The notes under the pieces are model-generated. The model was not told where the DNA came from. It did not search any database and saw only the letters and a list, made by a program, of their open reading frames with translations. DNA of 64,000 nt from assembly GCA_965218395.1 (NCBI GenBank), contig OZ244620.1, positions 1,669,268 through 1,733,267 on the forward strand, in the 5' to 3' direction. Positions 14,334 to 50,602 of this stretch are shown one piece after another. Source of the DNA: an uncultured Candidatus Binatia bacterium (GTDB lineage: Bacteria > Desulfobacterota > Binatia > Bin18). How positions within the stretch are numbered: position 1 is the stretch's first letter; each line of letters begins with the position of its first letter. The position numbers were made by a program, and so were the translations under genes.

Positions 14334-14346
14334 ACGAACACTCCCT

Positions 14347-19605: not shown

Positions 19606-19611
19606 TAGGGT

Positions 19612-21178: not shown

Positions 21179-21292
21179 GGCCGTTATGAATGTGTGAAAA
21201 TTCAGGAGCGGAACATATTGAATATAAATAAGAATATCGGTCGGAAGAGCGGTCCGAAGGGGAGGAATCTGGTCACCCGAACGCCGAGGCTG

Positions 21293-21496
21293 GAGCGTTT
21301 CACGATAAGTTGTAGCCGTGCCGGTCCGCGCTCGTCGGGAAAGACAAGGGCTGGCCCCAAGCGGCCAGGGAGGGGATGGGGGGGCTCCCCGCCTGGGAGG
21401 GCTCCCCGCCTGGGAGGGCGGCCATCCTGGCCGCCATGCGGGCTGGAAGCCCGCACTCCTCAAGGAGGAGAGAGACGCGCTACACAGCATCGTGAT
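21293..21496. repeat. ~200-bp inverted repeat, right copy (IR-R); carries an extra 19-bp tandem unit (CTCCCCGCCTGGGAGGG)
   Basis: Reverse complement aligns with 19415-19605. Confidence 0.75.
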
Positions 21497-23147: not shown

Positions 23148-25139
23148 TCAATCGCTCAGTTCCAGGGTGCGGAGTCTCGTATCTGCGGTCTTACCCTTAC
23201 CACACGTCACCCCGGCCCGCTCGTGTGCCCCGCAATTATGCTCCCCTATATCGGCATGAGGGCACTCCAGCAGGGTGGCTTCGTTCCCCTCGCAGTTCAC
23301 GTCGTCCAGCCAGTACCAACTGTCCTCTGAATCATCGGGCCCAAACGACAGCTTTATGAGCGCCGCGACGGTCTCCCGCTCCACCTCCGTATATCCCAAC
23401 TCGCGACACACAACTCTGGCACCCCTGTAGGTCCAGGAGTCATCACAGACACTCCGCCATTCATCATTATAAGCAATCTCGACGATGCCGGTCACCTCCG
23501 TCATGCCATCAGGCATGAGTGCCTCCCCCGTCTCTCGGTCCACAAGCCGCACCGTGCCATCATTGGCGTCCGCCGGGTCCACGTCGTCCGGCGGGTCCGG
23601 GGGGGGCGGCGTGATGATCTCCGCATTCGTGCTGACCGCGTCCGAGGCGTCCGACCAGTCGCTGTCCGTCTCGCCGTTCTTGGCCCGCACCTGCACCTGG
23701 TAGGACGTGTCCGCCGTCAGCCCGGTGATGGTCGTCGCGACCGCCTCGCCGGTGTGTGCGAAGGCGGTCCACGAGGAGTCCGTGCTCACCTTGTACTGCA
23801 CGTCGTAGCCGGTGATCTCCGGGCCGCCGTTCAGGTCCGGCTCCGTCCAGGTCGCGGTCAGGGTCGTCGACGAGCCCATGACCGCCGCCAGCGTCGGCTT
23901 GGCCGGCTTGGCCGATTTCTCGGTGTCGTCCGTGACGTCGATCGTCACCGCGATCGTGGCGCTGGCCGTGCCGTCCGACGCCTTCACCGTCACCGAGTAG
24001 GAATTCTTCGTCGCCTCATAGTTGTAGTCCACGCCCGTGATCGTCGTGATCTGCCGGGTCGAGGCGTCGAAGGCGAACGAGGCCGCGTCCGTCCCCTCCA
24101 TGGAGTAGGTCAGCGTGTCGCCGCTGTCGGCGTCCGTGGCTTCGGGAATGACCGCGCCGACGTTCGTGCCCGCCGGGCTGTTCTCCTCCACCTCGCGCGT
24201 CGCCGTCGCGGGGTCGAACACCGGGGCGTTGTTGCCCGTCCGCGAGCCGTCCACCTTGTGGCCGGACTGCACGCCGAGCGCGGCATGCGTGAGCCCCGCC
24301 GGCTCGCTGGTGGCCACGATCGTGATCGTGCCGGTCTGGTGACTGCCCACCAGGGTCTGGCCCTGGTGCCCGATCCAGATGCCGTCGTTATCCTCGTCGC
24401 TCGACACCACGGTGTAGCCGAACACCAGCGCGGCGGAGCCCGCGCCCGACTCGTACGCCGCATCGACCTGCCGCCCTACGCCCAGGTTGCCGAGCGAGAA
24501 CCTGAAAGCCGGGCTCGTGCCAATGTTCACCCCCGAGCTGAACGTCACCGTGAAGCGGATCGTCTCGCCCGCCCCGTAGGTGTCGGTCTCCAGCCCCGGC
24601 GTCGAGCTCACCGCCACCGAGACGATCGAACGCGAGCCGTCCACCTTGTGGTCGGCGTCCGTGCCGAGCCCGGCATGGGTGAGGTCCACCGCCGTGCTCG
24701 GCGTGGCCACGCTCGTGATCGCGCCCTCCTGGGTAAGACCCATGCGGTCACCCACCAGGGTCCGGTCCTGGTCCCCGATCCAGATGCCGTTGTCGTCCTC
24801 GTCGCTCGCCCCCACGGTGTAGGAGAACACCAGCCTCGTCGTCCCCGAGCCGAACAGCAGCGGCGCGCGCGTGTCGTCGCCGCCCACGGACAGCACGAAG
24901 GTCGTGGCGTCCGTGGCGTTCACCGCCGCGCTGAAGGTCACCGTGACCTCGATCCTCTCGCCCGCCCCGTAGGTGTCGGTCTCCAGCACCGGGTTCGACG
25001 TGATCGCCACAGTGGTGACCGTCTGCGCCTGGGCCGTGGCGGGCAGGGCGAGGGCGGCGAGCACCGCGAGCCAAGCCGCGACGCGCTGCCCTCTCCGGCC
25101 AAGCGCGTCCAACACCCCGGCCCCCAGCACGCCCCTCAT
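23148..25139 (-). CDS. N-terminal part of the adhesin-like protein: signal peptide, two ~105-aa Ig-like repeats, a cadherin repeat (NAPVF...DADSGDTLTYS...DYNYE), an FN3 domain, and a C-terminal SRCR (scavenger receptor cysteine-rich) domain
   Basis: ORF 23148..25343; start at MRGVLGAGV...AWLAVLAALALPATAQA. SRCR signature VRLVD...GIVEIAYNDEWRSVCDDSWTYRGARVVCRELGY...SWYWLDDVNCEGNEATLLECPHADIGEHNCGAHERAGVTC at ~23200-23580. Confidence 0.65.
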   Translation of the reverse strand: MRGVLGAGVLDALGRRGQRVAAWLAVLAALALPATAQAQTVTTVAITSNPVLETDTYGAGERIEVTVTFSAAVNATDATTFVLSVGGDDTRAPLLFGSGTTRLVFSYTVGASDEDDNGIWIGDQDRTLVGDRMGLTQEGAITSVATPSTAVDLTHAGLGTDADHKVDGSRSIVSVAVSSTPGLETDTYGAGETIRFTVTFSSGVNIGTSPAFRFSLGNLGVGRQVDAAYESGAGSAALVFGYTVVSSDEDNDGIWIGHQGQTLVGSHQTGTITIVATSEPAGLTHAALGVQSGHKVDGSRTGNNAPVFDPATATREVEENSPAGTNVGAVIPEATDADSGDTLTYSMEGTDAASFAFDASTRQITTITGVDYNYEATKNSYSVTVKASDGTASATIAVTIDVTDDTEKSAKPAKPTLAAVMGSSTTLTATWTEPDLNGGPEITGYDVQYKVSTDSSWTAFAHTGEAVATTITGLTADTSYQVQVRAKNGETDSDWSDASDAVSTNAEIITPPPPDPPDDVDPADANDGTVRLVDRETGEALMPDGMTEVTGIVEIAYNDEWRSVCDDSWTYRGARVVCRELGYTEVERETVAALIKLSFGPDDSEDSWYWLDDVNCEGNEATLLECPHADIGEHNCGAHERAGVTCGKGKTADTRLRTLELSD

Positions 25140-25359
25140 CGAACCGCCCCCCGCACGGGCACGAGCCGACGGGCGGAACCGGGGGGCGAAACCGGGTCGC
25201 AGCGGCCTCGGACGGGGCTGACTGTACGGGGGAACTGTGCTATGCGGAGAGGTTCGTTCGGGGAGCAGCAGGGATGTCATAACGGCATACCCGTCCTTTC
25301 CGTGTGATGCACGACCGCCTTGTAAAAGGTTCCCGTACAACATCTCGCCGCGTTTGACC

Positions 25360-37153: not shown

Positions 37154-37229
37154 TGGCTCCTCGGGTTGGACTCGAACCAACAACCCATCGGTTAACAGCC
37201 GATTGCTCTGCCGATTGAGCTACCGAGGA
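37154..37229 (-). tRNA. tRNA-Asn (anticodon GTT), CCA encoded
   Basis: Hand-folded cloverleaf: acceptor TCCTCGG/CCGAGGA, anticodon loop CTGTTAA, T-arm GTTGG-TTCGAGT-CCAAC. Confidence 0.85.
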
Positions 37230-37232: not shown

Positions 37233-37287
37233 AAAGAGTAAGCGTGTCCTCCAATACGCATACAGATGCCGGGCACGTTTACTCTTT
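37233..37287. repeat. family-1 palindromic element, copy c (loop in opposite orientation), between the recR stop and the tRNA-Asn 5' end
   Basis: AAAGAGTAAGCGTGTCC ... GGGCACGTTTACTCTTT. Confidence 0.65.
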
Positions 37288-38310: not shown

Positions 38311-38364
38311 AAAGAGTAAACATGTCCTCCAAAAACATACAGATGCTGGACACGTTTACTCTTT
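38311..38364. repeat. family-1 palindromic element, copy d, between dnaX and ybaB
   Basis: AAAGAGTAAACATGTCC ... GGACACGTTTACTCTTT. Confidence 0.65.
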
Positions 38365-38381: not shown

Positions 38382-40166
38382 CTAGGTTCCGCTTGCTCTC
38401 GACGTCCGCTTTGTCTGGATTTCTCCGCCAAGAATGTCCAGCGCGGTTCTGACGAGAGGGTCTACCGAGCCTGCCGAGTCCTGGGTGCTCTTGGGCGGCC
38501 GGCCTTCCTCCCCTGCTGGTGAGCCGGGCTGTTGTGTGGCCGGCCCGGGTCTGTCCTTTTGCACCTCAACGCTGAGCCTGCGTCCGAAAAACTGTTCGGC
38601 AGACTCCTCCAAAACGGTCCGATTCTCTTGGCGCAACAACTCTTTCAGATAGGGGTCCTTGTCCACGCCAATCTGTAAAGCGGTTGGGGTCAGGTCGAGC
38701 AAATAGCCCGCCTTCAGGGCAAAAAAGAGCGATATTTTCCTGCTCCGCACCGTCGCCAGAAAGCCGTCCCACTGCTCGCCCTGTTCCAGGTGTTCTACGG
38801 TACCGCTCGTAACAGGCGCCGACACAGGCACGGCGGCAGGATCGGGGGGGGGAGCGGGCTGAGCTGCCTCCTCGGCTTGTGGCACTGTGGTTGGGGGCGT
38901 ACTCAGGTCGGTAGAGTCCTTTGAGTCCTTTGAGTCCTTGAGACCCGAAGGCCCAATAGACCCAGCTGAGGCGGCAGGTCGAAAGCGCTGCTGTCTTGTC
39001 GGGGCCGGGCGGCTACCGCTGCCGAATTGGTGTTGCAACTCTTCCAGTGTGGCCAGGGCTTCCTGAATCGGGAGCACCGGCGGCTGACTGGCCAGCTTGA
39101 CCAGCGCCATCTCAATGACGAGCTGGGTATAGGCCGACTTCCGCACGGCTTCTTCCGTCTCCAACAGCGAGGCAAAGAAGCGCTGGAGATCTTCTCGTGA
39201 GCGCAGGGCGGCCTGTTTGCGGACGATCTCAACCTCGTGATCGGGCAGATCGGCCAGAATAGACACGTCAGCACTTACTTTGGCAACCACGAGATCGTGG
39301 AAGTGGGTGAGCAGATCGTGACACAGCCGACGCGGGTCATAGCCGTATTGGTACAGATCCCCGGTCAGCCGGAGCACCTGAGCCGGGTCTTCGGCCAGGA
39401 TCGCCTCAACCACCCGAAACAGGGCCTGGCGGTCGGCCACGCCCAGGGCGTCTCTGACCGCCGTCTCATCGACCCGGCCGTTGCTCCACGCCACCACCTG
39501 GTCGAGGAGCGATTCGGCATCGCGCAGGCTCCCGTCGGCCTCCCGCGCCAGCAGGGCCAGCCCGGCCTCATCGCACTCAAAGCCTTCGGCCTGGGTGAGG
39601 TGCCGGAGTTGCTGTATGAGGTCGCGCAGGGGGATGCGCTTGAAGTCGTAGCGCTGACAGCGCGACAGAATCGTCTGCAAAATTTTATGCGATTCCGTGG
39701 TCGCAAAAATGAATTTGACATGCGCCGGCGGCTCTTCCAGGGTTTTCAGCAGGGCGTTGAAGGCGGCATTTGAGAGCATGTGGACTTCGTCGATAATGAC
39801 CACCCGAAAACGGCCCGTGGCCGGTCGATACTGCACCCCTTCGGTCAAATCTCGCACATTGTCCACGCCGGTATGCGAGGCGCCGTCGATTTCCAGGACG
39901 TCGATGGCGCTGCCGTTGGTGATCTCCTCGCACTGGCTACAGGCGTTACACGGGTCCGGCGTCGGCCCCTGTTCACAATTCAGGGCTTTGGCCAAGAGCC
40001 GGGCGGTGGTCGTTTTGCCCACCCCGCGCGGCCCGGTAAACAGGAAGGCGTGCGCCACGCGCTCGCTGCGGATGGCATTCCGCAAGGTGCGCGTGACATG
40101 TTCCTGCCCAATGACGTCGTCGAACGTCTGAGGGCGCCACTTCCGGGCAAGAACGAGATAGCTCAT
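38382..40166 (-). CDS. dnaX: DNA polymerase III subunits gamma/tau
   Basis: GPRGVGKTTTAR Walker A, zinc module CNACSQCEEI, SRC motif; the proline-rich C-terminal linker carries an in-frame repeat insert (GLKDSKDSKDSTD). Confidence 0.9.
   Translation of the reverse strand: MSYLVLARKWRPQTFDDVIGQEHVTRTLRNAIRSERVAHAFLFTGPRGVGKTTTARLLAKALNCEQGPTPDPCNACSQCEEITNGSAIDVLEIDGASHTGVDNVRDLTEGVQYRPATGRFRVVIIDEVHMLSNAAFNALLKTLEEPPAHVKFIFATTESHKILQTILSRCQRYDFKRIPLRDLIQQLRHLTQAEGFECDEAGLALLAREADGSLRDAESLLDQVVAWSNGRVDETAVRDALGVADRQALFRVVEAILAEDPAQVLRLTGDLYQYGYDPRRLCHDLLTHFHDLVVAKVSADVSILADLPDHEVEIVRKQAALRSREDLQRFFASLLETEEAVRKSAYTQLVIEMALVKLASQPPVLPIQEALATLEELQHQFGSGSRPAPTRQQRFRPAASAGSIGPSGLKDSKDSKDSTDLSTPPTTVPQAEEAAQPAPPPDPAAVPVSAPVTSGTVEHLEQGEQWDGFLATVRSRKISLFFALKAGYLLDLTPTALQIGVDKDPYLKELLRQENRTVLEESAEQFFGRRLSVEVQKDRPGPATQQPGSPAGEEGRPPKSTQDSAGSVDPLVRTALDILGGEIQTKRTSRASGT
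38908..38963. repeat. family-2 dispersed repeat copy (TCGGTAGAGTC CTTTGAGTC CTTTGAGTC ... CCCAATAGACCC) inside the dnaX linker coding region
   Basis: Shares the TCGGTAGAGTC, GAGTCCTTTG and CCCAATAGACC blocks with copies at 45028-45136 and 48951-49039. Confidence 0.5.
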
Positions 40167-40234
40167 ACCATAGCCGACGGTTTGGGGTTGTCCGGTGTGC
40201 TACGCCGGGGTGTCACTCTCCCCACGCGGTGTCA

Positions 40235-40282
40235 AGAGTAAACGTGTCAACATCTGCATGTTTGAGGACACGTTTACTCTTT
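40235..40282. repeat. family-1 palindromic element, copy e, in the dnaX 5' leader
   Basis: AAGAGTAAACGTGTC ... GGACACGTTTACTCTTT, loop AACATCTGCATGTTTGA. Confidence 0.65.
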
Positions 40283-40297
40283 GAGGATGAGCCGGGC

Positions 40298-40416
40298 GTC
40301 AGTGGTGATAGCTAGGCTACCCTGCGGCACAGGGAGAATTCCGGTACCGCTGCTTCCTTCCGGACCTGACGGATTTCCCGGCTTCCCTTGCGCAGGACCT
40401 AGCTATCACCACTGAC
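40298..40416 (-). ncRNA. ffs: signal recognition particle RNA (4.5S/ffs type)
   Basis: Minus strand contains GUCAGGUCCGGAAGGAAGCAGC and UGUGCCG...GGGUAGCC (domain IV motifs), closed by a 19-bp terminal helix GUCAGUGGUGAUAGCUAGG/CCUAGCUAUCACCACUGAC. Confidence 0.75.
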
Positions 40417-40502
40417 GGAGAGGGAGGGATTCGAACCCTCGGTACCGTGAGGTACACACGATTTCCAGTCGTGCCCGATCGGCCTGACTCTGGCACCTCT
40501 CC
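40416..40502 (-). tRNA. tRNA-Ser (anticodon GGA), class II with long variable arm; CCA not encoded
   Basis: Acceptor GGAGAGG/CCTCTCC, anticodon loop CTGGAAA, variable stem GTACC...GGTAC, T-arm GAGGG-TTCGAAT-CCCTC. Confidence 0.8.
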
Positions 40503-40796
40503 CATACATAGGCCCATCCTCCAGGGCCGCGCGTGTGCAAGAGGTTTACCACCTCCCCAGTCCTCCTGCAAGGAAGGGACGAGGCAACACCGTGCGGTCT
40601 GACGGACCGAGCCCAGCGGCCCGAAAAAGCGAACCTCAAGCAGGGGCCGCAGCTCCGTGTCGGGCGTCCGGGGAGCTGGTGCTTGGGGTTGTTGACACCG
40701 TGCCGGGCCTCTGTATCTTGTGCCGAGGGCACTGGGCAGACGACAACACCATAATACGCTGCCCAGCGTGGCTGTCGGAGTTGACACGAGCGAGCT

Positions 40797-41150
40797 ATGG
40801 ATCAATACGTTCCCGTCCTGATTGCGCTGATCCTGGGTGGGGTTGTGGCCCTGGTCATGACCTTTGCGAGCACGCTGCTCGGCGTCAAAACCCACTCGGC
40901 GGTCAAGGACGAACCGTTCGAGTGCGGCAATCCACCCAGCGGTTCTGCGTGGGGTCGCTTTTCCGTCAAATTCTATCTCGCCGCCATCCTCTTCATTGTC
41001 TTTGATGTCGAAGTGGTCTTCCTCTATCCCTGGGCGGTCGTCTTCCGCCAGTTGGGCCTGTTCGGCTTCATGGCCATGTTACTCTTCGTGCTCGTGCTGG
41101 TTGTGGGTTTGGTCTATGAGGTGAAAAAGGGGGGGCTGGAATCGACCTGA
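40797..41150 (+). CDS. nuoA: NADH-quinone oxidoreductase subunit A
   Basis: Three-TM NuoA pattern ending ...VYEVKKGGLE. Confidence 0.9.
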   Translation: MDQYVPVLIALILGGVVALVMTFASTLLGVKTHSAVKDEPFECGNPPSGSAWGRFSVKFYLAAILFIVFDVEVVFLYPWAVVFRQLGLFGFMAMLLFVLVLVVGLVYEVKKGGLEST

Positions 41151-41167
41151 CCAGCCCGTAGGCAGAC

Positions 41168-41677
41168 ATGGCTGAAGCAGACATTCTCTCCCATATCGAG
41201 ACGGCCTTGCCCGGCACGATACAAGAGCGGCACTCCTCGCACGGGAACGATACGATTGTCATCGACCGGGCAGACCTGTCGACTGTTTTGAGCCAGCTCA
41301 AGGCGCAGCCGGATTTTGCCTTCAACCTGTTGCTCGATATCACCGGGGTCGATTTTTTCGGGAAAGAGCCGCGCTTCGAGGTCGTCTACCACCTCCACTC
41401 ACTGACACATAACCATCGCCTGCGGGTCAAAGTCCGACTCACGGAGGAGAGTGCCCAGTTGCCCTCGGCGGCGTCGGTCTGGAAGTCGGCAGACTGGCTG
41501 GAGCGCGAGGTCTGGGACATGTTCGGGATTAGGTTTACCGATCATCCGGATCTGCGTCGGATTCTGATGTACGAAGAATTCCGCGGCCATCCGCTCCGCA
41601 AAGACTATCCGGTCAACAAACGTCAACCCCTGGTCGAAGAACGCGACCCCATTACCAATCCATGGCATAAAGGGTAA
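41168..41677 (+). CDS. nuoC: NADH-quinone oxidoreductase subunit C (30 kDa); follows nuoA directly with no nuoB between
   Basis: ERE(V/A)WDMFGI motif; 17-nt gap after nuoA. Confidence 0.85.
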   Translation: MAEADILSHIETALPGTIQERHSSHGNDTIVIDRADLSTVLSQLKAQPDFAFNLLLDITGVDFFGKEPRFEVVYHLHSLTHNHRLRVKVRLTEESAQLPSAASVWKSADWLEREVWDMFGIRFTDHPDLRRILMYEEFRGHPLRKDYPVNKRQPLVEERDPITNPWHKG

Positions 41678-41683
41678 CAACCT

Positions 41684-42910
41684 ATGGCGGAAGCCGCGGC
41701 CGACCTGCTTCGTGCGCAAAAAGACGTTGCTGAACACGACCCCACCTCTGAAATCATGGAATTGCAGATGGGTCCGTCCCATCCGGCAACCCACGGTACA
41801 ATCAAATTCAACCTCACCCTGGACGGGGAAAAAATCCTCAACTGCGAGGTCGAGATCGGCTATCTGCACCGCGGCTTTGAGAAGATGTGTGAGCAGCGCA
41901 CCTGGAATCACTGCATCCCCTACACCGACCGCCTGAATTACGCCTCGCCGCTCATCAATAACGTGGCCTTTGCCTTAACCGCCGAACAACTGCTCGACGT
42001 TGAGGTCCCGGAACGCTGCCAGTATATCCGGGTCATCATGAGCGAGATCTCCCGGATTACCGACCATTTGACGTGTCTGGGCATGGCCGCGGCTGAAGCC
42101 GGCGCGATTTCCGTGGGCTTCTATCTGATGGAAGCGCGTGAGACCCTGTACGACCTGGTCACGGCCGTGACCGGCGCCCGCCTGACGGTCAGCTATGCCC
42201 GGGTCGGTGGTGTCACGCACGATCTGCCGCAGGACTTTGACGAGCGCGTGCGGACTGCATTCACTGACATACGTCACCTCCTGGGTGACTGTGACAAGCT
42301 GCTGTCCAAGAATCGTATATTCATTGACCGTATGTCCGGGGTTGGCATCATGTCTCCGGAAGACGCGATTTCGTACAGCCTCACCGGTCCGCTACTGCGC
42401 GCAACCGGCGTCCCCTACGATGTGCGCAAGGCGCAGCCCTACTCGGGCTACGAGCGTTTTGAGTTTGACATCCCGACCGGGACCCAGGGCGACAATTACG
42501 ACCGCTTTTCCGTGCGCTTTGAGGAAATTAAACAGAGCATGCGGATTATCGACCAGGCCCTGAACGGCATTCCGAGCGGCCCGATTCGGATTGACGACCC
42601 GCAGATTAGCCTGCCTGAAAAAAAGCAGGTATACGGCAATATCGAGGGTCTGATGAACCATTTCAAGCTGGTCATTGAGGGGGTTAAAATTCCACCCGGC
42701 GAGGCGTTTCTGAGTGTGGAAGGTGCCAACGGCGAACTCAGCTTTTATCTCGTCAGTGACGGCAGCGGTCGTCCCTATCGCGTCCGGGTTCGTCCGCCCT
42801 GTTTTTTCGGCATGGCGGCGCTGGGCGATATGTTACGCGGCTGTCTGATCTCCGACATTATTACGACTTTTGGTATGGTCAATATGATAGGCGGGGAGTG
42901 TGACCGCTAA
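41684..42910 (+). CDS. nuoD: NADH-quinone oxidoreductase subunit D (49 kDa)
   Basis: GPSHPATHG start motif, RVIMSEISRITDHL, C-terminal ...GGECDR. Confidence 0.9.
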   Translation: MAEAAADLLRAQKDVAEHDPTSEIMELQMGPSHPATHGTIKFNLTLDGEKILNCEVEIGYLHRGFEKMCEQRTWNHCIPYTDRLNYASPLINNVAFALTAEQLLDVEVPERCQYIRVIMSEISRITDHLTCLGMAAAEAGAISVGFYLMEARETLYDLVTAVTGARLTVSYARVGGVTHDLPQDFDERVRTAFTDIRHLLGDCDKLLSKNRIFIDRMSGVGIMSPEDAISYSLTGPLLRATGVPYDVRKAQPYSGYERFEFDIPTGTQGDNYDRFSVRFEEIKQSMRIIDQALNGIPSGPIRIDDPQISLPEKKQVYGNIEGLMNHFKLVIEGVKIPPGEAFLSVEGANGELSFYLVSDGSGRPYRVRVRPPCFFGMAALGDMLRGCLISDIITTFGMVNMIGGECDR

Positions 42911-42950
42911 GGGACGGTGGGAGCCGTCCCGATAGTGCTGAGAGCAGAGT

Positions 42951-43433
42951 ATGGCTGTCCAATTTTCGGAGGAAACGCACAAACGGTTCGAGGAAGTGCT
43001 GACCCGCTATCCAACCAAGCGGGCCGCCATCCTGCCCACCCTGTGGCTGGCGCAGACCGAGTTCGGCTATCTGAGCCCCGCGGCGATGGAGCATGTGGCC
43101 GGTCTGCTCGACCTGTCGCCGGCCTATGTGCAGGGTGTCGCGACCTTTTACACCATGTTCTACAAGGAGCCGATGGGGCAGTGTCACGTACAGGTCTGCA
43201 CCAACCTGTCCTGCACCCTGGTTGGCGCCGAAAAAATTGTCCGCTGCCTGGAAGACCGGCTCGGCGTCAAAGTCGGGCAGACCACCGGCGATAAGGTGTT
43301 TTCACTGAGCGAGGTCGAATGTCTGGGTTCGTGCGGCACCGCTCCGGTTGTCCAGGTCAACGACGACTATCACGAGCAGCAGACCCCGGAGAGCATGCTC
43401 GGCCTGATCGATGAGTTGGCAAAACAGGCCTGA
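42951..43433 (+). CDS. nuoE: NADH-quinone oxidoreductase subunit E (24 kDa, 2Fe-2S)
   Basis: Thioredoxin-like ferredoxin cysteines CHVQVC...C...CLGSCGTAP. Confidence 0.85.
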   Translation: MAVQFSEETHKRFEEVLTRYPTKRAAILPTLWLAQTEFGYLSPAAMEHVAGLLDLSPAYVQGVATFYTMFYKEPMGQCHVQVCTNLSCTLVGAEKIVRCLEDRLGVKVGQTTGDKVFSLSEVECLGSCGTAPVVQVNDDYHEQQTPESMLGLIDELAKQA

Positions 43434-43441
43434 AACAACCT

Positions 43442-44533
43442 ATGATAGATTTTCTCATCACGTTTAGCCTGACCCTGCTGATGGTGCTGATGGTGCTGAA
43501 TCTCGGCGGGCTGCTGGGGTGGGTAGAGCGCAAAGGCAGCGCGGTTCTGCAAGATCGGATTGGGGCCAATCGAGCCGCCGTGTTTGGAAAACTCCCCTTT
43601 AATCTTGGCATCGTGAACACCTTGGTTGCCGACCCGGTCAAGTTTTTCACCAAAGAAGATTTTATTCCTCCGGGGGCTGACAAGCTGCTGCATACGCTCG
43701 CCCCGGCTATTGGTCTGGTCCCGCTCTTAGCCACCTTTATTGTGATTCCGTTTGGTGACGTGCTCATTGTTGGCGGACGGGAAATCAGGCTCCAGGCCGC
43801 CAATCTGAATATCGGCATTCTGTACGTCCTGGCGATGGTCTCGCTCAGCGTGTACGGCGTTGTCCTGGGCGGCTGGGCCTCCAATAACCGCTGGGCGCTG
43901 CTGGGCGGGATTCGGGGCTGTGCCCAGATGATCTCGTACGAGATTCCCTTGGGGCTGGCGCTCATCGGCGTGGTCCTGGCCTTCGGCTCGCTGGACCTGC
44001 AAGAGATTACGCGCGCCCAGGGTGCGCTGCTTGGCGGCTGGATCCCAGCCTGGGGCATTGTGTATCAGCCCGTTGCTTTTCTGGTCTTCCTGGCCGCCGG
44101 GATGGCCGAGAGTAAACGGGTTCCGTTTGATATGCCCGAGGCCGAGTCCGAGTTGATATCCGGCTATTTCACCGAGTATTCCGGCTCCAAGCATCTCATG
44201 TTCATGCTGAGTGACTTTGTTGAGGTCATTATCGTCGCCGGGCTGATTACCACGCTCTTCTTTGGCGGTTGGCAGGTCCCGTTTCTGCTGCGCGACGGGT
44301 TTCATTTTCCGTGGGGCGGGACACTCGCACTGCCCTCACTCCTGGTGACTTTACTTCAGGTTGGGGCGTTTACGCTGAAGGTGCTCTTCTTCTGTTGGTT
44401 CCAGATCATGATTCGCTGGACCCTGCCCCGCTTCCGCTATGACCAGCTCATCGGCCTGGGCTGGAAAATTCTCCTGCCGCTGGCGCTGGCCAACGTCATG
44501 CTGACCGCGCTGGCTATTCTCCTGTTCGAGTAG
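43442..44533 (+). CDS. nuoH: NADH-quinone oxidoreductase subunit H; follows nuoE directly (no nuoF or nuoG)
   Basis: NuoH/ND1 TM pattern (GWASNNRWALLGGIRG, QMISYEIPLGLAL). Confidence 0.9.
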   Translation: MIDFLITFSLTLLMVLMVLNLGGLLGWVERKGSAVLQDRIGANRAAVFGKLPFNLGIVNTLVADPVKFFTKEDFIPPGADKLLHTLAPAIGLVPLLATFIVIPFGDVLIVGGREIRLQAANLNIGILYVLAMVSLSVYGVVLGGWASNNRWALLGGIRGCAQMISYEIPLGLALIGVVLAFGSLDLQEITRAQGALLGGWIPAWGIVYQPVAFLVFLAAGMAESKRVPFDMPEAESELISGYFTEYSGSKHLMFMLSDFVEVIIVAGLITTLFFGGWQVPFLLRDGFHFPWGGTLALPSLLVTLLQVGAFTLKVLFFCWFQIMIRWTLPRFRYDQLIGLGWKILLPLALANVMLTALAILLFE

Positions 44534-44538
44534 ACGCT

Positions 44539-45027
44539 ATGGATTTCGTGACCTTCTTTGCCTTGGCTATTCCGTTGGTCGTGATCGCGCTCATGGTCAT
44601 CGCCCATCCCAGCCCGGTCTATAGCGCCCTGTTTCTGGTCCTGACGCTTTTTCTGTTGGCGGTCTATTTTCTGTTTCTGGACGCCCATATGGTCGCCGCG
44701 CTCCAGATCATCGTGTACGCCGGGGCGATCATGGTCCTGTTTTTATTTGTGATTATGCTGCTCAATTTGCAGACCGACCCCCAGCCGACACCGCGCCGCG
44801 GCCTGGGCCGAGCGGCCATTATTGGCGGCGTCATCCTGGTTGCGGAACTGGGTCTGCTGCTGCAACGCTCCTCGTCCGAGCAAGCCGAGCGCAGCCTGCC
44901 CGAGAATTTCGGGACGGTCGAAGCCTTGGGGAGTCAGCTCTTCACCACGTATCTGCTGCCCTTTGAAATCACCGGCCTGCTGCTGTTGGTGGCGGTTGTG
45001 GGGGCAGTGGTCTTAGCCAAACGATAG
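44539..45027 (+). CDS. nuoJ: NADH-quinone oxidoreductase subunit J; follows nuoH directly (no nuoI)
   Basis: ND6-like TM protein. Confidence 0.85.
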   Translation: MDFVTFFALAIPLVVIALMVIAHPSPVYSALFLVLTLFLLAVYFLFLDAHMVAALQIIVYAGAIMVLFLFVIMLLNLQTDPQPTPRRGLGRAAIIGGVILVAELGLLLQRSSSEQAERSLPENFGTVEALGSQLFTTYLLPFEITGLLLLVAVVGAVVLAKR

Positions 45028-45136
45028 AAAGAGTAGATGTATGCGTCTGTTGAGTCCTTTGCGTCTGTTGAGTCCTTTGCGTCCGACCCAACAGACTCAA
45101 CACACCCAACAAACCCCATAGACCCAATACTCTTTG
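45028..45136. repeat. compound repeat E1 between nuoJ and nuoK: family-1-like termini (GAAAGAGTA ... TACTCTTTG) enclosing family-2 units (GCGTCTGTTGAGTCCTTT x2, CCCAACAGACTCAA, CCCATAGACCCAAT); its 3' end supplies the GAGGG RBS of nuoK
   Basis: Read from the sequence. Confidence 0.6.
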
Positions 45137-45146
45137 AGGGCGACAG

Positions 45147-45449
45147 ATGGTCCCAATCAGCTATCATCTCATTCTGAGCGGCATCCTGTTCACCATCGGT
45201 GTGACGGGCGTTCTCCTGCGCCGCAATATCATTATTATTTTCATGGCGATTGAACTCATGCTCAACGCCGTCAACCTGTCTTTTGTGGCCCTGGCGCGGC
45301 ATTTCGGCAATATGGACGGACAGATCATCGTGTTCTTTGTCATGTCGGTTGCGGCGGCGGAGGTCGCGGTTGGGTTGGCCATCATCCTGCTCGTTTTCCG
45401 CGGCCGGGAGACGGTCAATGCCGACGAACTCAACCTGATGCGGTGGTAA
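45147..45449 (+). CDS. nuoK: NADH-quinone oxidoreductase subunit K
   Basis: 100-aa three-TM ND4L-like protein. Confidence 0.9.
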
Positions 45450-45564
45450 AGCGTATGACACAATTACCGAGTTGTAGGGGCAGGCCCCTGTGCCTGTCCT
45501 CATTCGACATCACGGGCAACCACAGGGGGTTGCCCCTACATCGACCGGGAGTGGTGCTGTAGAG

Positions 45565-47475
45565 ATGGAACATCCGCACGTGGCTGAAGTCGCCGTCCAG
45601 ACGGTCTCGTATCTCCGCTATATCGTTCTCTTTCCCCTGCTCGGGGTGGTGTTCAACCTCTTCTTGGGGCCGCGCTACGGCCGACGGGTCGTGAACTGGG
45701 TGTCGCCGGGCATGGTCTTCCTGGCGTTCTGCTTTGCGTTTGCGGCCTTTGTCCAACTGCCGGACGGCGGCGCCCTGGTCGATAGTGTCTACCCCTGGAT
45801 TTACTCGGGCGCCCTACAGGTTGATATGGTGCTCCGGGTTGACCCCCTGTCCGGCACAATGATCATGGTCATCACCGGCGTCGGCTTTCTCATCCATGTC
45901 TATTCCGTCGGCTATATGGCCCACGACGACGATGTGGTGCGCTACTTTGCCTATCTCAACCTCTTCACCACCGCCATGCTGCTGCTGGTGCTGGGCGATA
46001 ATATCCTGCTGCTGTTCGTGGGCTGGGAAGGCGTTGGCCTGTGCTCCTATTTACTCATTGGCTTTTGGTATACGGACGATGAAAAAGCCAGTGCCGGGAA
46101 AAAGGCGTTTATCGTCAATCGGGTCGGTGATGCCGGTTTTCTGCTGGGCCTGTTTCTGTTGTTCTGGAGTCTGGGCGCCCACGGTATCTGGACGCTGTCG
46201 TTCAGCGAAATCGAAGCCCACGCCTCCGTGTTGCCCGTGCCGACGGTCACGCTTATCTGTCTGCTCTTCTTTGTGGGCGCGGCCGGCAAGTCGGCCCAAA
46301 TTCCGCTCTATGTCTGGCTGCCGGATGCCATGGCCGGTCCCACCCCGGTGAGCGCCCTCATTCATGCCGCGACTATGGTGACGGCCGGCATCTATCTGAT
46401 TGCGCGTATGCATTTCCTGTATTCCCTGTCCCACACCGCCTTAGCCGTTGTGGCCGTGGTCGGCGCCGTTACTGCCCTGTTTGCCGCCACGATTGCCCTG
46501 GTGCAGACCGATATCAAAAAGGTCCTGGCCTACTCAACGGTCAGTCAGTTGGGCTATATGTTTCTGGGGCTGGGGGTGGGCGCGTATGCGGCGGGCGTGT
46601 TTCATGTCATGACCCACGCTTTCTTCAAGGCCCTCCTTTTTCTCGGTGCCGGCAGCGTCATCCACGGCATGAGCGAAGAGCAGGACATCCGCAAGATGGG
46701 CGGGCTGAAAAGTAAGATGCCGACCACCTACGGCACGTTTGCCGTCGGCTGTCTGGCCATTGCCGGCTTTCCCTTGCTGTCCGGTTTTTTCAGCAAGGAC
46801 CTCATCCTGGAACACGCCTTTGGGAGTCCGCACGGCTCTCCCCTGCTGTGGCTGATGGGCACCCTGGGGGCGGGCCTGACCGCCTTCTATATGTTTCGCT
46901 TATTCTTTGTCACGTTCTGGGGCGAAAATCGTTCTGACCCCGAGGTCGCCCGGCATATTCATGAATCGCCCCAAGTCATGACCATACCCCTGGTGGTGCT
47001 CGCCATCCTGTCTTTGATCGGCGGCTATTTTACCCTGCCCGAACTGCTCAGCCCGCTGTACGGCCATGCCCATCCGCAGGTGTCGCCCCTGGTGAAATAT
47101 CTGCCCACCCTGCTTGGGTTGGGTGGGATTGGGCTGGCGTATCGGCTGTATGTGCACGACCCCCCTTTTGTCCCTGGTAGAGGAGGGGCCGACCGCCTCA
47201 GCCGGCAGTTCTCCGGCCTGCACCGGTTGTTGCTGAATAAATATTATGTTGACGAGTTCTACGAAGCGGCGATTGTCCGGCCTCTGCTGGCCGCCTCGGA
47301 CTGGCTGTGGAAGGTGTGGGATACGCTCGTTATTGATGGCCTGGTCAACGGCACGGCGCAGATGATGCAGGCCAACGGCTCGGTCCTGCGCCTGTGGCAA
47401 ACCGGCAATGTCCAGACCTACGCCCTGTCGTTCTGTTGCGGCGCGATCGTGATTCTGGGGTATTATCTGTGGTAA
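45565..47475 (+). CDS. nuoL: NADH-quinone oxidoreductase subunit L
   Basis: ORF 45490..47475; start at MEHPHVAEVAVQ. Antiporter-like TM core plus a long C-terminal amphipathic region. Confidence 0.85.
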   Translation: MEHPHVAEVAVQTVSYLRYIVLFPLLGVVFNLFLGPRYGRRVVNWVSPGMVFLAFCFAFAAFVQLPDGGALVDSVYPWIYSGALQVDMVLRVDPLSGTMIMVITGVGFLIHVYSVGYMAHDDDVVRYFAYLNLFTTAMLLLVLGDNILLLFVGWEGVGLCSYLLIGFWYTDDEKASAGKKAFIVNRVGDAGFLLGLFLLFWSLGAHGIWTLSFSEIEAHASVLPVPTVTLICLLFFVGAAGKSAQIPLYVWLPDAMAGPTPVSALIHAATMVTAGIYLIARMHFLYSLSHTALAVVAVVGAVTALFAATIALVQTDIKKVLAYSTVSQLGYMFLGLGVGAYAAGVFHVMTHAFFKALLFLGAGSVIHGMSEEQDIRKMGGLKSKMPTTYGTFAVGCLAIAGFPLLSGFFSKDLILEHAFGSPHGSPLLWLMGTLGAGLTAFYMFRLFFVTFWGENRSDPEVARHIHESPQVMTIPLVVLAILSLIGGYFTLPELLSPLYGHAHPQVSPLVKYLPTLLGLGGIGLAYRLYVHDPPFVPGRGGADRLSRQFSGLHRLLLNKYYVDEFYEAAIVRPLLAASDWLWKVWDTLVIDGLVNGTAQMMQANGSVLRLWQTGNVQTYALSFCCGAIVILGYYLW

Positions 47476-49055
47476 GCCTGATCGTTTTCCTTCCGCTGCT
47501 GACGGCGTTCTTCCTGTTGAGCCTCAACAAGAATGCGGTGGAGTTGGTCCGGCGAACCGCCTTTGGTGCTTCGCTGCTGACCTTCTTCATCTCGCTCGGC
47601 CTGTTCACCGGCTTTGATAGTGAGACCGCCGCGTTTCAATTCGTGGAGCGCTATGCCTGGATCAGCGAATTCGGGATCGAATACTATGTTGGCGTCGATG
47701 GTATCAGCCTGTTCCTCGTCCTGCTGACGACGTTTCTTTCGCCGCTGGTGATTCTGTCCACCTGGAGCAGTGTCGAACATCGGGTCAGAGAGTATCTGTT
47801 TTTCTTTCTCATTCTGGAAACCGGCATGATCGGGACCTTTGTCGCGGTTGATGTCTTTCTCTTCTATGTCTTCTGGGAAGTCATGCTGATTCCCATGTAC
47901 TTCCTGATTGGCGTCTGGGGTGGCGAACGGCGTATTTATGCCGCGCTCAAATTCCTGCTCTATACCATGGTCGGCAGCCTCCTGATGCTGGTGGCCATCC
48001 TGTATCTGGCCTATCTGCATAATACCCAGCACGGCACGCTCAGTTTCGACCTGCTGCGCCTGTATACGCTTGAGATTCCGGTCAGCGCCCAGATGTGGTT
48101 GTTCGCCGCGTTTGCCCTGTCCTTTGCTATCAAGGTTCCGCTCTTCCCCTTTCACACCTGGCTGCCGGACGCGCACGTCGAAGCCCCAACCGGCGGCTCT
48201 GTCATTCTGGCCGGCGTGCTGCTCAAAATGGGCACCTACGGCTTTCTGCGTTTTGCCCTGCCCCTCTTCCCCGATGCCGCCCAGGCCGCAGTGCCGCTAA
48301 TCATGGCGCTCTCGGTGGTTGGTATCGTGTATGGGGCGCTGGTGGCCCTGGTGCAGCCGGATATGAAAAAGCTGGTGGCCTACTCGTCCGTCAGCCACCT
48401 CGGCTTTGTCATGCTGGGGCTGTTTGCGTTCAACATACAGGGGGTCGAAGGCGCGCTGTATCAGATGCTCGGCCACGGCCTGTCAACCGGCGCCCTCTTC
48501 CTGTTGGTCGGCGTGGTGTATGAGCGCCGCCATACGCGGCTCATCAGTGAGTACGGCGGCTTATGGAAACAACTGCCGCTCTTTGCCTCGGTCTTTCTGA
48601 TTACCATGCTGTCTTCGATCGGCCTGCCGGGCCTGAACGGATTTGTCGGGGAGTTCCTCATCCTCTTGGGGACCTTTCAGGCGAACGCGCTCGTAGGTGC
48701 GATAGCGGTTTCCGGCGTTGTGCTGGGTGCGGTGTATATGCTGCGGCTGTATCAGCGGGTTGTTTTCGGACCGCTGACCCGGCCGGAGAACGCCAAGCTG
48801 ACCGACCTGTCCCGCCGCGAGCTGGCCATATTCGTTCCGTTGATCGCCCTGATGGTGCTGATGGGTCTCTACCCCAAGCCCTTCCTCAGCCGTATGGAGA
48901 AGTCGGTAGAAGCCACCCTGGCTCGGATTCACAAAACTGCCGATAATAAGTCGGTAGAGTCTGTTGAGTCGATAGAGTCTGTCCTGAGCCGTGTCGAAGG
49001 GTCCAAGAGGCCCAACAGACTCAAAGACCCAATAGACCTAAAAGGAGCGGGTTGA
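47469..49055 (+). CDS. nuoM: NADH-quinone oxidoreductase subunit M, with a repeat-encoded C-terminal tail (KSVESVESIESVLSRVEGSKRPNRLKDPIDLKGAG)
   Basis: ORF 47394..49055; probable GTG start overlapping the nuoL stop (GTGGTAA). Antiporter-like core; the last ~35 aa are read from repeat E2. Confidence 0.8.
   Translation: MVSLIVFLPLLTAFFLLSLNKNAVELVRRTAFGASLLTFFISLGLFTGFDSETAAFQFVERYAWISEFGIEYYVGVDGISLFLVLLTTFLSPLVILSTWSSVEHRVREYLFFFLILETGMIGTFVAVDVFLFYVFWEVMLIPMYFLIGVWGGERRIYAALKFLLYTMVGSLLMLVAILYLAYLHNTQHGTLSFDLLRLYTLEIPVSAQMWLFAAFALSFAIKVPLFPFHTWLPDAHVEAPTGGSVILAGVLLKMGTYGFLRFALPLFPDAAQAAVPLIMALSVVGIVYGALVALVQPDMKKLVAYSSVSHLGFVMLGLFAFNIQGVEGALYQMLGHGLSTGALFLLVGVVYERRHTRLISEYGGLWKQLPLFASVFLITMLSSIGLPGLNGFVGEFLILLGTFQANALVGAIAVSGVVLGAVYMLRLYQRVVFGPLTRPENAKLTDLSRRELAIFVPLIALMVLMGLYPKPFLSRMEKSVEATLARIHKTADNKSVESVESIESVLSRVEGSKRPNRLKDPIDLKGAG
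48951..49039. repeat. family-2 repeat E2 (TCGGTAGAGTCTGTTGAGTC GATAGAGTC ... CCCAACAGACTCAAAGACCCAATAGACC) forming the nuoM 3' end and the nuoN RBS region (AAAAGGAG)
   Basis: Shared blocks with 38908-38963 and 45028-45136. Confidence 0.55.
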
Positions 49056-50602
49056 GTATGGACATGACACTCCCCGCCGTTAATTGGCTCTCGGTCCTGC
49101 CGACCCTGCTCCTGTCCGCGACCGGCATGCTGGCCCTGTTCTGGGACATCTGGATCAAAGACGATGAGCGCTCTTTGCTCGGCTGGCTGAGCCTGACGGG
49201 TATTGTTGGCACGGCGCTGTGTTCCTGGTTGTTGTGGGGCCACAACGATGTGACGTCGTTCAGCGGCATGTTTGCCCTCGATACGTATGCCCTGTTCTTC
49301 AATCTCGTCTTTTGTCTGGTCGCGGGTCTGACGGTGTTGATGTCTTTGAGCTATCTCGAAACCGCCGAGATCCGGCACGGAGAGTATTACGCCCTCATTC
49401 TCTTTGCCACGGTCGGCATGACGGTCATGGCTGCCGCCACCGACCTCATTTTTATCTTTCTGGGTCTGGAAACCATGTCGATTGCCGTGTACGTCCTGGC
49501 CGGGATCTGGCGGCAACATCTCACCTCGCATGAAGCGGCGCTCAAATATTTTCTCCTCGGGGCGTTTGCGAGCGGATTCCTGCTGTATGGCATTGCCCTG
49601 ATTTATGGGGCGACGGGCAGCGTTCAGCTCGGACCCATTGCCGAACACGTCGGTGCCCAGGGCTCTTCGCCCTTACTGTTGATTGGCATGGGGCTCTTGA
49701 TCGTGGGTTTTGGGTTTAAGGTTGCCGCTGTCCCGTTCCACGTCTGGACCCCGGATGTGTATCAAGGCTCACCCACAACCGTCACCGCTTTTATGGCGGT
49801 GGGTGTCAAAGCCGCCGCCTTTGCCGCCTTTGCCCGGATATTCCTGCATACCCTGGGTGCGGTCCATGCGGATTGGCAGGGTATTCTGTGGGTCGTGGCC
49901 GCCCTGACCATGACGGTCGGGAATATCACCGCGCTTGTCCAGCATAACATCAAACGCATGCTGGCCTACTCAAGCATAGCCCATGCCGGCTATCTCCTGG
50001 TCGCCATGGTTGCCGGCGGGGACTTGGGCGGCGCGGCTCTGCTGTACTACCTGGTGGCCTATGGGCTGATGAATCTGGGCGCATTTGGGGTGATGGTCGC
50101 GGTTGGGCGCAGGGGTGAGCCGCATGAAGAGCTTGACGATTATGCCGGCCTGGGTTTTCGTTATCCGGCCCTGGGGATGGCCATGACCGTGTTCATGCTC
50201 TCTCTGACGGGGGTTCCGCCGCTGGTCGGGTTCACCGGCAAGTTTTATATTTTCAGCGCTGCGGTGCAGGCCGGCTATATCTGGCTGGCGGTGATCGGCG
50301 TGCTGAACAGCGCGGTATCAGCCTATTACTATATTCGCGTCGTCGTCAATATGTATATGCGTGAGGGCGAGGCCATAGTCGAATTACCCTCACTCCGTTC
50401 GGCATTAGGGCTGGCCATCCTGATAGCCGCAATCGGCACCGTGCTGATGGGCGTCTTCCCGTCCGCGTCATGTCCTTGGCCGGCGCGTCGTTTTTGTCGT
50501 TGGGATGAACCGAGGAGAGCCGCGGGCTGCTTTTTGCAGGTGGGCAACGCCTCTGGCCGTTTGCGCGTGGGCGGGGAAGTGGTATGCGAGCCAGTATGCT
50601 GA
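49052..50602 (+). CDS. nuoN: NADH-quinone oxidoreductase subunit N; the last ~45 aa may be out of frame (an alternative frame gives ...FPSRVMSLAGASFLSLG* ending at ~50516)
   Basis: ATGA overlap with nuoM; ND2-like core. The C-terminal tail as read (SASCPWPARRFCRWDEPRR...) is unlike NuoN and overlaps cobS by 19 nt. Confidence 0.8.
   Translation: MSMDMTLPAVNWLSVLPTLLLSATGMLALFWDIWIKDDERSLLGWLSLTGIVGTALCSWLLWGHNDVTSFSGMFALDTYALFFNLVFCLVAGLTVLMSLSYLETAEIRHGEYYALILFATVGMTVMAAATDLIFIFLGLETMSIAVYVLAGIWRQHLTSHEAALKYFLLGAFASGFLLYGIALIYGATGSVQLGPIAEHVGAQGSSPLLLIGMGLLIVGFGFKVAAVPFHVWTPDVYQGSPTTVTAFMAVGVKAAAFAAFARIFLHTLGAVHADWQGILWVVAALTMTVGNITALVQHNIKRMLAYSSIAHAGYLLVAMVAGGDLGGAALLYYLVAYGLMNLGAFGVMVAVGRRGEPHEELDDYAGLGFRYPALGMAMTVFMLSLTGVPPLVGFTGKFYIFSAAVQAGYIWLAVIGVLNSAVSAYYYIRVVVNMYMREGEAIVELPSLRSALGLAILIAAIGTVLMGVFPSASCPWPARRFCRWDEPRRAAGCFLQVGNASGRLRVGGEVVCEPVC

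Follow-up and report, generated by a model that had tools for sequence, protein, structure and literature searches.

Palindromic repeats with arms of nine-nucleotide units in dnaX and the nuo operon of an uncultured Candidatus Binatia bacterium

Rickettsia palindromic elements (RPE), reportedly described by Ogata et al. in 2000, insert in frame into many unrelated protein-coding genes. The BOX elements of Streptococcus pneumoniae contain variable internal tandem modules with a subunit of ~45 nt, with boxA and boxC as distinct end modules, and the heptamers of the cyanobacterial short tandemly repeated repetitive (STRR) sequences form a short tandem repeat family of intergenic regions. Here we describe a repeat, termed the nonamer hairpin, that is present at three places in a 64-kb stretch of contig OZ244620.1 from an uncultured Candidatus Binatia bacterium (the whole stretch is referred to as the window): inside dnaX, in the spacer between nuoJ and nuoK, and at the 3' end of nuoM.

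Precedents for such positions come from repetitive extragenic palindromic sequences (REPs), which lie downstream of open reading frames (ORFs) and inside genes, notably those of replication and repair, and which can supply stop codons (Di Nocera et al. 2013, PMC3733652); the same source mentions Rickettsia palindromic elements. Because in-gene and stop-supplying REPs are documented there, a palindromic repeat within coding sequence is not unusual in kind, contrary to what an earlier reading of the window from its letters (the sequence-only reading) had proposed. Among short tandem families, the TAACTGA direct repeats of Beggiatoaceae are intergenic (PMC4679880). In Borgs, tandem repeats with units divisible by three create intrinsically disordered protein regions (PMC9879509).

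Three related hairpins in the window

Each copy of the nonamer hairpin is an imperfect palindrome, 55-110 nt long, in which a long hairpin is predicted to form from two arms of 9-nt units (Table 1). The 5' arm consists of tandem G-R-G-T-C-N4 units, such as GAGTCTGTT, GAGTCCTTT, GAGTCGATA and AAGTCGGTA, and is GAGTCYKTT-like overall. The 3' arm consists of near-complementary units (GAC-Y-C plus four bases; e.g., GACCCAACA, GACCCAATA and GACTCAAA) that approach GACCCAAYA. The two arms either abut, as GAGTC-TT-GACCC in relatives, or flank an insert, as in copy 3. Tandem Repeats Finder reports the 9-nt period at 38914-38939 and 48949-48979.

The sequence-only reading had placed copies of a second repeat family at these three positions, and the sequences are indeed found there; its translations, GLKDSKDSKDSTD for DnaX on the minus strand and KSVESVESIESVLSRVEGSKRPNRLKDPIDLKGAG for the NuoM C-terminus, are correct as well. 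Several lines of evidence indicate that the family is genuine. By chance, 0.45 occurrences of GAGTCYKTTG and 0.18 of CCCAAYAGAC are expected in the window; the observed counts are 7 and 4, and 0 of 100 shuffles reached either of them. In nhmmer searches of both strands of the entire window, each copy as query matched the two other copies with E values of 1.3e-5 to 4e-4, and no further match appeared up to E=10. The similarity of the three copies therefore passes a proper local-alignment test rather than falling to chance. A synthetic consensus also matches exactly three places in the window, the same three, and scores higher in the + orientation at each. All three copies share one absolute orientation, though dnaX and the nuo genes lie on opposite strands. 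An assembly artefact was considered and ruled out, since assemblies from ENA, Logan and NCBI that are independent of one another contain orthologous copies.

Table 1 Positions of the three nonamer hairpins and of the genes and motifs around them
Feature	Position in window	Strand	Description
dnaX	38382..40166	-	DNA polymerase III tau/gamma, 594 aa; element in Pro-rich linker
Copy 1	38907..38964	+	Nonamer hairpin within dnaX; ends set by DNA alignment with element-free alleles L125 and L126
Copy 1 arms			Left, GTCGGTA + 3 x GAGTCCTT(T); right, GACCCGAAG GCCCAATA GACCC
nuoJ	44539..45027	+	Upstream neighbour of copy 2; stop codon 45025-45027
Copy 2	45028..45135	+	Composite element in nuoJ-nuoK spacer; interior is a nonamer hairpin
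Copy 2 left arm	45042..45083	+	18-nt unit TGCGTCTGTTGAGTCCTT x 2.3, two alternating nonamers (Tandem Repeats Finder)
Copy 2 right arm	45085..45127	+	GACCCAACA-type nonamers x 4.8 (Tandem Repeats Finder)
GAGGG motif	45136-45140	+	Shine-Dalgarno-like motif of nuoK, 6 nt before ATG; outside the element
nuoK	45147..45449	+	Downstream neighbour of copy 2; ATG at 45147
nuoM	47460..49055	+	531 aa; GTG start matching relatives' gene calls
Copy 3	48948..49043	+	Nonamer hairpin forming the 3' end of nuoM
Copy 3 left arm			AAGTCGGTA GAGTCTGTT GAGTCGATA GAGTCTGTC
Copy 3 central extra insert	~48984-49009		Between the arms
Copy 3 right arm			GCCCAACA GACTCAAA GACCCAATA GACCTAAAA
AAGGAG motif	49042..49047	+	Shine-Dalgarno-like; 10 nt before nuoN ATG (49058); overlaps last unit of copy 3
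nuoN	49058..50602	+	ATG agrees with relatives' 483-aa gene calls

Checked on both strands against dinucleotide shuffles, all three copies fold better than the shuffled sequences, as imperfect hairpins with z from -2.7 to -5.9, which answers the question of hairpin formation that the sequence-only reading had raised. The fold is strand-asymmetric. On one strand the 5' arm contains mostly GAGTC units and on the complementary strand GGGTC units, so that A.C mismatches arise on the former and G.U pairs on the latter; G.U or G.T wobble pairs are possible on one strand only of each copy. The GGGTC strand folds more stably in 12 of the 14 copies compared. No covariance model of Rfam 15 matched at the three sites, either at gathering thresholds or at E up to 5, and a promoter and terminator scan returned nothing meaningful at the elements, with no T-run after the three copies.

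All three window copies have the tetranucleotide GTAG close to their 5' end (GGTAGAGTC, GAGTAGATG); it has been lost in orthologous copies (GGTGGAGTC in L003, TCTGTTGAGTC in L004) and most other members also lack it. Avoidance of GAGTC as a sign of a restriction system was considered and set aside as uninformative, the pentamer being only mildly under-represented outside the elements (ratio 0.76, rank 32 of 512 pentamers).

Variation among close relatives

By its NuoM and DnaX, the window belongs to a Binatia-like lineage. The syntenic DNA of several relatives, identified through the two proteins and labelled Candidatus Binatia or 'Deltaproteobacteria' in their source records, was compared with the window. 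Matches to NuoM led to L001 (a 3.9-Mb ENA contig; 95% identical over 92% of the query, with the tail unaligned), L003 (an ENA scaffold; 96%) and L004 (an ENA scaffold; 88%), and matches to DnaX to L125 (a 1.9-kb ENA contig; P0137, 87%), L126 (a 4.6-Mb ENA contig; P0135, 87%) and L127 (a 4.4-Mb ENA contig; P0121, 97%). Across these loci the nonamer hairpin is present in some lineages and absent from others, its number of units changes rapidly, and repeats of other families take its place.

In DnaX, the element falls in the hypervariable Pro-rich linker past domain III (residues ~403-422), where the minus strand of the window reads GSIGPSGLKDSKDSKDSTD. In an alignment of 50 homologues, the whole hairpin is present in the linker of 33 of the 37 proteins with at least 82% identity, in the form (G/E)S(I/V)n - SSGL - (K/T)D(S/P)n, and a simple motif count gives 0-7 units in one arm and 1-10 in the other. 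For example, L001 has one KDS fewer than the window, and P0156 reads SAGSIGSVESIGSVGSMGSVESVGSSDLKDSKNSKNSIDSKDSKNST. An ordinary Pro-rich linker is found in P0130, P0135, P0137 and P0157 and in all homologues with 79% identity or less, which are element-free. At the DNA level, the element of the filled alleles lies between conserved flanks, ...CTCAGC and CTGAGT..., which in element-free alleles enclose ~75-90 nt of Pro-rich coding sequence. The proposal that copy 1 is an insertion of 3n nucleotides into the tau linker is thus upheld in so far as the segment is lineage-specific and in frame; a clean insertion it is not, as the alleles show replacement. A programmed-frameshift role for the dnaX hairpin was rejected, there being no slippery heptamer upstream and the nearby C9 run being unconserved. 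This homopolymer (38845-38853 in the linker; sense strand, GCTCCCCCCCCCGAT) is one residue shorter (C8) in L001 and does not run uninterrupted in L127, and is therefore unlikely to be a conserved slippage site for a gamma product.

At the 3' end of nuoM, the conserved core of the window protein ends at ...MEKSVEATLARI, and the residues past ...HKTADN are encoded by the element. Across the NuoM clade the conserved core ends with ...MEKSVEATLAR(I/V), beyond which everything is hypervariable. A nonamer hairpin stands at this position in the window, L003, L004 and L126, with differing unit numbers and sequences; in L001 both the tail (KEAAPSTHAMADLTRSRPVLSESVTSE) and the nuoM-nuoN junction are unrelated. 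This comparison bears out the suggestion that the last ~35 residues of NuoM are element-encoded, given that the L001 tail is unrelated in a protein 95% identical over 92% of the query and that the other tails vary in unit number.

The element had also been suggested to provide the ribosome-binding site of nuoN. The purine run AAAAGGAG before nuoN is continuous with the last unit, GACCTAAAA, and is confined to element-bearing alleles, so the element, or a segment that arrived with it, is plausibly the source of the putative nuoN ribosome-binding site, in keeping with that suggestion. Of the other alleles, L003 and L126 have AAGGGG as the Shine-Dalgarno-like form and L004 the weaker AAAAGG; there is none in L001, which lacks the element at this position.

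Two further observations concern this end of nuoM. The EKSVE codons of the NuoM core (GAGAAGTCGGTAGAA, 48900-48910) and the first element unit (48948-48959) share the 11-mer AAGTCGGTAGA, 48 nt apart, which is possibly a microhomology used in acquisition of the element, or else chance. The tails that follow MEKSVEATLAR are hypervariable across the clade, at about 15-60 aa in NuoM homologues P0005-P0057, and many of them resemble translations of other palindromic repeats (LRQAQHERL, VLSLSKDE, GEGQGEG...LTPTLSR). It thus seems that repeats in general tend to land at the 3' end of nuoM.

Copy 2 is a composite. It fills 108 nt of the 119-nt spacer that separates the nuoJ stop codon from the nuoK ATG, and its outer ends, AAAGAGTA (45028-45035) and TACTCTTT (45128-45135), are the termini of a different palindromic repeat, family 1, whose consensus is AAAGAGTAAACGTGTCC-loop-GGACACGTTTACTCTTT. 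The adjoining TGTATGCGT likewise belongs to family 1 (termini and loop). An ordinary family-1 element takes up this spacer in L126 and L001, and the L126 flanks are identical to those of the window: CGATAG, then AAAGAGTA...TACTCTTT, then GAGGGCGACAGATGG. This shared shell indicates that, in both the window and L003, a nonamer hairpin has come to occupy the inside of a family-1 element. The sequence-only reading had taken copy 2 as the entire nuoJ-nuoK spacer and as the source of the nuoK ribosome-binding site. A nonamer hairpin is there, but as a hybrid with family 1 that leaves part of the spacer uncovered, and the attribution of the ribosome-binding site fails: GAGGG is flanking sequence and is present in L126, where the spacer contains a family-1 element.

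Family 1 itself is a palindrome of ~55 nt with a 21-nt loop that occurs in either orientation and contains GTCTATTGG, the nonamer motif. Its other sites in the window are 6694-6747, 12596-12649, 37233-37287, 38311-38364 and 40240-40282 (partial), and in relatives it lies at 7607-7678 and ~7987-8045 of L001 and ~5102-5169 of L126. The presence of the nonamer motif in the family-1 loop suggests recombination or conversion between the two families, or the descent of one from the other.

In the nuoK-nuoL spacer, the nonamer hairpin is found in L003 only. L001 has a family-1 element there, L004 has none of these repeats, and the window and L126 have a third type of repeat, GTAGGGGCAGGCCCCTGTGCC... 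plus GGGCAACC...GGTTGCCC. In the window this third hairpin repeat occupies 45475-45548 (shared with L126) and reads GTAGGGGCAGGCCCCTGTGCCTGTCC then CGGGCAACCACAGGGGGTTGCCC; owing to it the longest nuoL ORF (GTG at 45490) is over-extended, the start common to relatives being the ATG at 45566. Judging from the alleles compared, the nuo intercistronic spacers are hot spots in which unrelated hairpin repeats replace one another among strains with ~95% identical NuoM cores.

Occurrence at other loci and position relative to genes

Nonamer hairpins recur at unrelated loci, their hosts spanning several phyla and including a phage; they take positions at stop codons, in C-terminal tails and in linkers. 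Pattern scans were run on genome, viral and metagenome collections, the genome scan with three consecutive GAGTC nonamers and the metagenome scan with a right-arm pattern. The matches listed show presence rather than abundance and are mostly plain coding tandem repeats; as GAGTC or its complement was required, the apparent universality of this core is partly circular. Two-arm hairpins of the same design are present in at least three further metagenome-assembled genomes (MAGs) of Binatia (L025 and L048, L035, L077), in many Acidobacteriota, especially Blastocatellia and Pyrinomonadaceae (e.g., L075, L079, L086, L101, L110, L119), and in a Spartobacteria MAG (L124). Several genomes were matched twice among the matches listed. 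The metagenome scan gave at least about 30 further members, on contigs of 41-66% GC.

The viral scan led to L188 (IMGVR_UViG_3300010391_000153; 62.7% GC), which carries a siphovirus-like tail module with genes for a tail tube, a tape measure, tail protein L and NlpC/P60. Four Binatia-type copies lie within 11.5 kb, at 1330-1409, 2386-2458, 3187-3275 and 6958-7054. Three of the four each fill the spacer from a stop codon to the next ribosome-binding site, and the remaining one spans an ATGA stop/start overlap; the NlpC/P60 protein ends in residues encoded by the left arm of this copy, and the following ORF begins with residues encoded by the right arm. The density of nonamer hairpins in this phage tail operon is far above that in the chromosomal window. 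There is a possibility that phages carry or spread the family. At the protein level, a profile of eight element peptides found one match, P0241 (an 83-aa ORF, KSLESIESVESIE...KDSKDSKD), in a collection of 5.8 billion proteins, a size at which no short, low-complexity query can reach significance.

Position relative to genes was analyzed for 41 hairpin-type elements outside the orthologous set, using open frames of at least 100 codons. Sixteen of the 41 start between -1 and +11 nt from the stop of such a frame, and in 7 of those 16 the TGA is made of a T before the first GAGTC plus the GA of that GAGTC. At most of the loci inspected, the element lies in a short spacer between co-directional genes.

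In-gene copies are always read in one frame, in which GAG-TCN-NTN is translated as (E/G)S(V/I) and GAC-YCN-NNN as D(P/S)X; the number of such copies is small, and picking of ORFs favours open frames. Besides DnaX and NuoM, in-frame copies are found in a PAS/HisKA/HATPase_c histidine kinase (L256), where the insert splits the HATPase_c domain, in a ClpB-like AAA+ protein and a TPR protein (L251), and as the C-terminal tails of an HlyD-type adaptor (L025) and of the phage NlpC/P60 protein (L188). The other frames reach stop codons, TGA in GTC-TGT-TGA and TAG in ACC-CAA-TAG, and in the +2 frame TTGAGTC gives TGA. The common frame is therefore best explained as survivorship. As each unit equals three codons, its gain or loss never shifts the reading frame, and because the first units provide a TGA in the +2 frame, most copies begin where a stop codon ends and occupy the spacer as far as the ribosome-binding site of the following gene.

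Other features of the window and of its relatives were recorded alongside. Genes for the signal recognition particle (SRP) RNA and tRNA-Ser(GGA) lie between dnaX and the nuo operon (40307-40404 and 40416-40502), and tRNA-Asn is at 37154-37229. In L127, an integrase/AlpA island (7252-9538) is located on that side of dnaX which in the window looks towards tRNA-Ser and the nuo genes, and beyond recR on the opposite side there is a type I restriction-modification cluster (13300-21785), so that synteny with the window breaks there. A phosphate-selective porin O/P gene (19612-21027) is flanked by inverted repeats of about 200 nt at 19404-19608 and 21290-21507, with arm pairs of 113, 76 and 24 nt that are 95-96% complementary and no transposase between them; related arms occur at 10126-10275 and 21612-21770. 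Direct repeats at 24241-25021, with a period of about 390-405 nt and 79-82% identity, fall in a 731-codon minus-strand ORF (23148-25343) and probably reflect tandem protein domains.

Origin of the repeats and comparison with known systems

The reading that we favour, with some reserve, is that the three segments are dispersed, non-autonomous palindromic repeats that behave like REP, RPE or miniature inverted-repeat transposable elements (MITEs) and whose arms slip in 9-nt steps. Several observations weigh against it: (i) At dnaX, nuoJ-nuoK, nuoK-nuoL and the nuoM 3' end alike, the alleles compared differ by replacement of sequence, with no target-site duplication and no clean empty site, a pattern that is not the signature of simple cut-and-paste insertion. 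(ii) DnaX alleles that lack the element are interspersed among the element-bearing ones when the conserved domains are placed in a neighbour-joining tree, which requires allelic recombination, repeated loss or repeated gain. (iii) The nuoJ-nuoK copy sits in a family-1 shell, which speaks for conversion or recombination involving both families and against insertion as an independent event. (iv) All three window copies fall within 10 kb, with none in the remaining ~50 kb. (v) No transposase, REP-associated tyrosine transposase (RAYT) or other candidate mobilising gene was found among the ten window ORFs checked and the L188 ORFs, and no parent insertion sequence with matching ends turned up among the loci examined, no genome-wide search having been made.

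Three other explanations were weighed. The hairpins might be functional mRNA elements in the first place, kept by selection for protection from 3' exonucleases, processing or translational coupling, with the coding copies as by-products. We consider this unlikely, though several features would suit it: copies typically occupy exactly the stretch that separates a stop codon from the ribosome-binding site of the following co-directional gene (in nuo, in other Binatia and Acidobacteriota and in the phage late operon), right-arm units of the AAAGGAC type give Shine-Dalgarno-like motifs beside downstream starts, and the same nuo spacers hold hairpin repeats whose family differs by strain, as would be expected if any hairpin could serve the purpose. 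A role of this kind has been proposed for REPs (PMC3733652). The explanation is weakened by the strand asymmetry, since the GGGTC strand is the stabler one in most copies yet the mRNA corresponds to the weaker strand at roughly 5-6 of 7 independent intergenic sites, and by the finding of no compensatory changes between orthologous copies, whose arms vary independently in unit number (1 vs 10 in P0151). The lack of an Rfam match or a terminator-like tail at the window copies also speaks against it, as does the nuoK-nuoL spacer of L004, which is short and without any such element.

It is improbable, in our view, that no mobility is involved and that each array grew in place by short-tandem expansion and fold-back duplication, the likeness among copies having arisen by convergence, for instance on disordered peptides of the ESV/KDS type. 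Unit numbers do change between close strains by slippage, GAGTC tandem 9-mers are common in unrelated coding sequences such as those of Streptomyces, and the NuoM core already has AAGTCGGTAGA (EKSVEA) 48 nt before the first unit AAGTCGGTAGAG, which would be a possible seed. However, coding and non-coding copies share unit variants (GTCGGTAGAGTC on the left, CCCAATAGACC on the right), each copy matches the other copies specifically by nhmmer, the two-arm design recurs at many unrelated loci in several genomes and a phage, and peptide-level selection does not account for intergenic copies. An enzymatic origin, in which a GAGTC-specific nicking enzyme and a strand-displacing polymerase make or amplify the arrays by nick-primed synthesis with fold-back, seems to us very unlikely. 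BstNBI and BspD6I cut GAGTC 4/6, which places a top-strand nick exactly at the 9-nt unit boundary (PMC3017599), and in vitro, nickases stimulate ab initio synthesis of repeats, or of short repeated palindromes, in which the enzyme's own site is present (PMC10520511); GAGTC is also somewhat under-represented outside the elements, and the elements do occur in phage DNA. Against this, about one unit in two has GGGTC, GCGTC or AAGTC in place of GAGTC, the shortfall of GAGTC is unremarkable, the scans imposed the GAGTC core, no nickase gene turned up (no search was aimed at one), and a 9-nt period would be selected equally by coding tolerance alone. The broader proposition of a cross-phylum, phage-carried repeat class that spreads in vivo by nick-primed strand-displacement synthesis, its 9-nt unit persisting because it is coding-neutral, is very improbable; if it were true, the in vivo arrays would be a natural counterpart of the nickase-stimulated 'ab initio' repeat synthesis.

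If the repeats are dispersed palindromic elements, as we favour, copies would survive where they stand in a stop-free frame at tolerant places, such as a disordered linker (as in DnaX tau), a surface loop or a C-terminal tail (as in NuoM), and would there become hydrophilic, presumably disordered protein segments. Unit number would vary by replication slippage together with template switching between the arms, and dispersal to new loci and to phage DNA would need a trans-acting activity or recombination. The effect on the host is probably neutral to mildly useful: the elements may serve as generic intercistronic hairpins and as donors of Shine-Dalgarno-like motifs, some units reading AAAGGA.

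For the catalogue of bacterial palindromic repeats, the nonamer hairpin adds a design of two complementary arms of frame-preserving 9-nt units, found in little-known lineages of soil and sediment (Binatia, Acidobacteriota) and in phages. Through such repeats, essential proteins gain segments of variable length that are presumably disordered, as in the tau linker of DnaX and the tail of NuoM, and the same is seen in a histidine kinase and a ClpB-like ATPase. The repeats also remodel stop codons, C-termini and intercistronic regions of conserved operons between strains whose NuoM cores are ~95% identical. In annotation of MAGs they will inflate or distort gene calls and protein tails, and they could serve as strain-typing markers in the manner of variable-number tandem repeats.

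Literature searches with the nonamer strings and for nonamer or nonanucleotide palindromic repeats returned no description of a nonamer hairpin element in the library searched. Among known systems, the REP/REPIN sequences (GTAG/CGTC) resemble it in being short, dispersed, imperfect palindromes with several families per genome, located mainly just downstream of ORFs between co-directional genes, at times providing a stop codon and at times lying inside genes, including replication genes; G.T pairs occur in the stems of both, and the window copies share the stem-loop character of REPs, folding better than their shuffles. They differ in length (55-110 nt for the nonamer elements, 20-40 nt for REPs), in that the nonamer arms are tandem 9-nt units of variable copy number, and in that more than 90% of REP members carry an unpaired terminal GTAG/CGTC tag, which the nonamer element does not. 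MITEs are recognized by terminal inverted repeats, target-site duplications and clean empty sites, whereas here four loci show replacement.

The likeness to RPE is one of function only: in both, palindromes lie in frame in diverse genes, and the hydrophilic peptides are tolerated at surfaces or in linkers, here in DnaX, NuoM, the histidine kinase, the ClpB-like ATPase, the TPR protein, the HlyD adaptor and the phage NlpC/P60 protein. By their description RPE stand apart, having no tandem subunits and no variation in unit number and belonging to another host lineage. BOX elements are modular intergenic repeats with variable internal tandem subunits and predicted stable stem-loops, but their subunit is not a coding-tolerant multiple of three, their ends are distinct, and no sequence similarity to them is known. 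The STRR and TAACTGA families, which occur genome-wide, share with the nonamer hairpin very short units in few tandem repeats at many intergenic sites; their heptamers break the reading frame, their arrays are direct and lack a complementary arm, and no in-frame protein segments are reported for them. Borg repeats are likewise fast-evolving, have multiple-of-three units, form disordered protein segments and also lie between genes, but they are perfect direct repeats that arise independently at each site, with neither a dispersed family of shared units nor a hairpin. None of REP, RPE, BOX and Borg repeats combines two complementary arms of frame-preserving nonamers. Since the same kind of element is present in other Binatia, in Acidobacteriota and in a phage, the nonamer hairpin is a palindromic repeat of the REP/RPE type with a new architecture, rather than a new kind of system.

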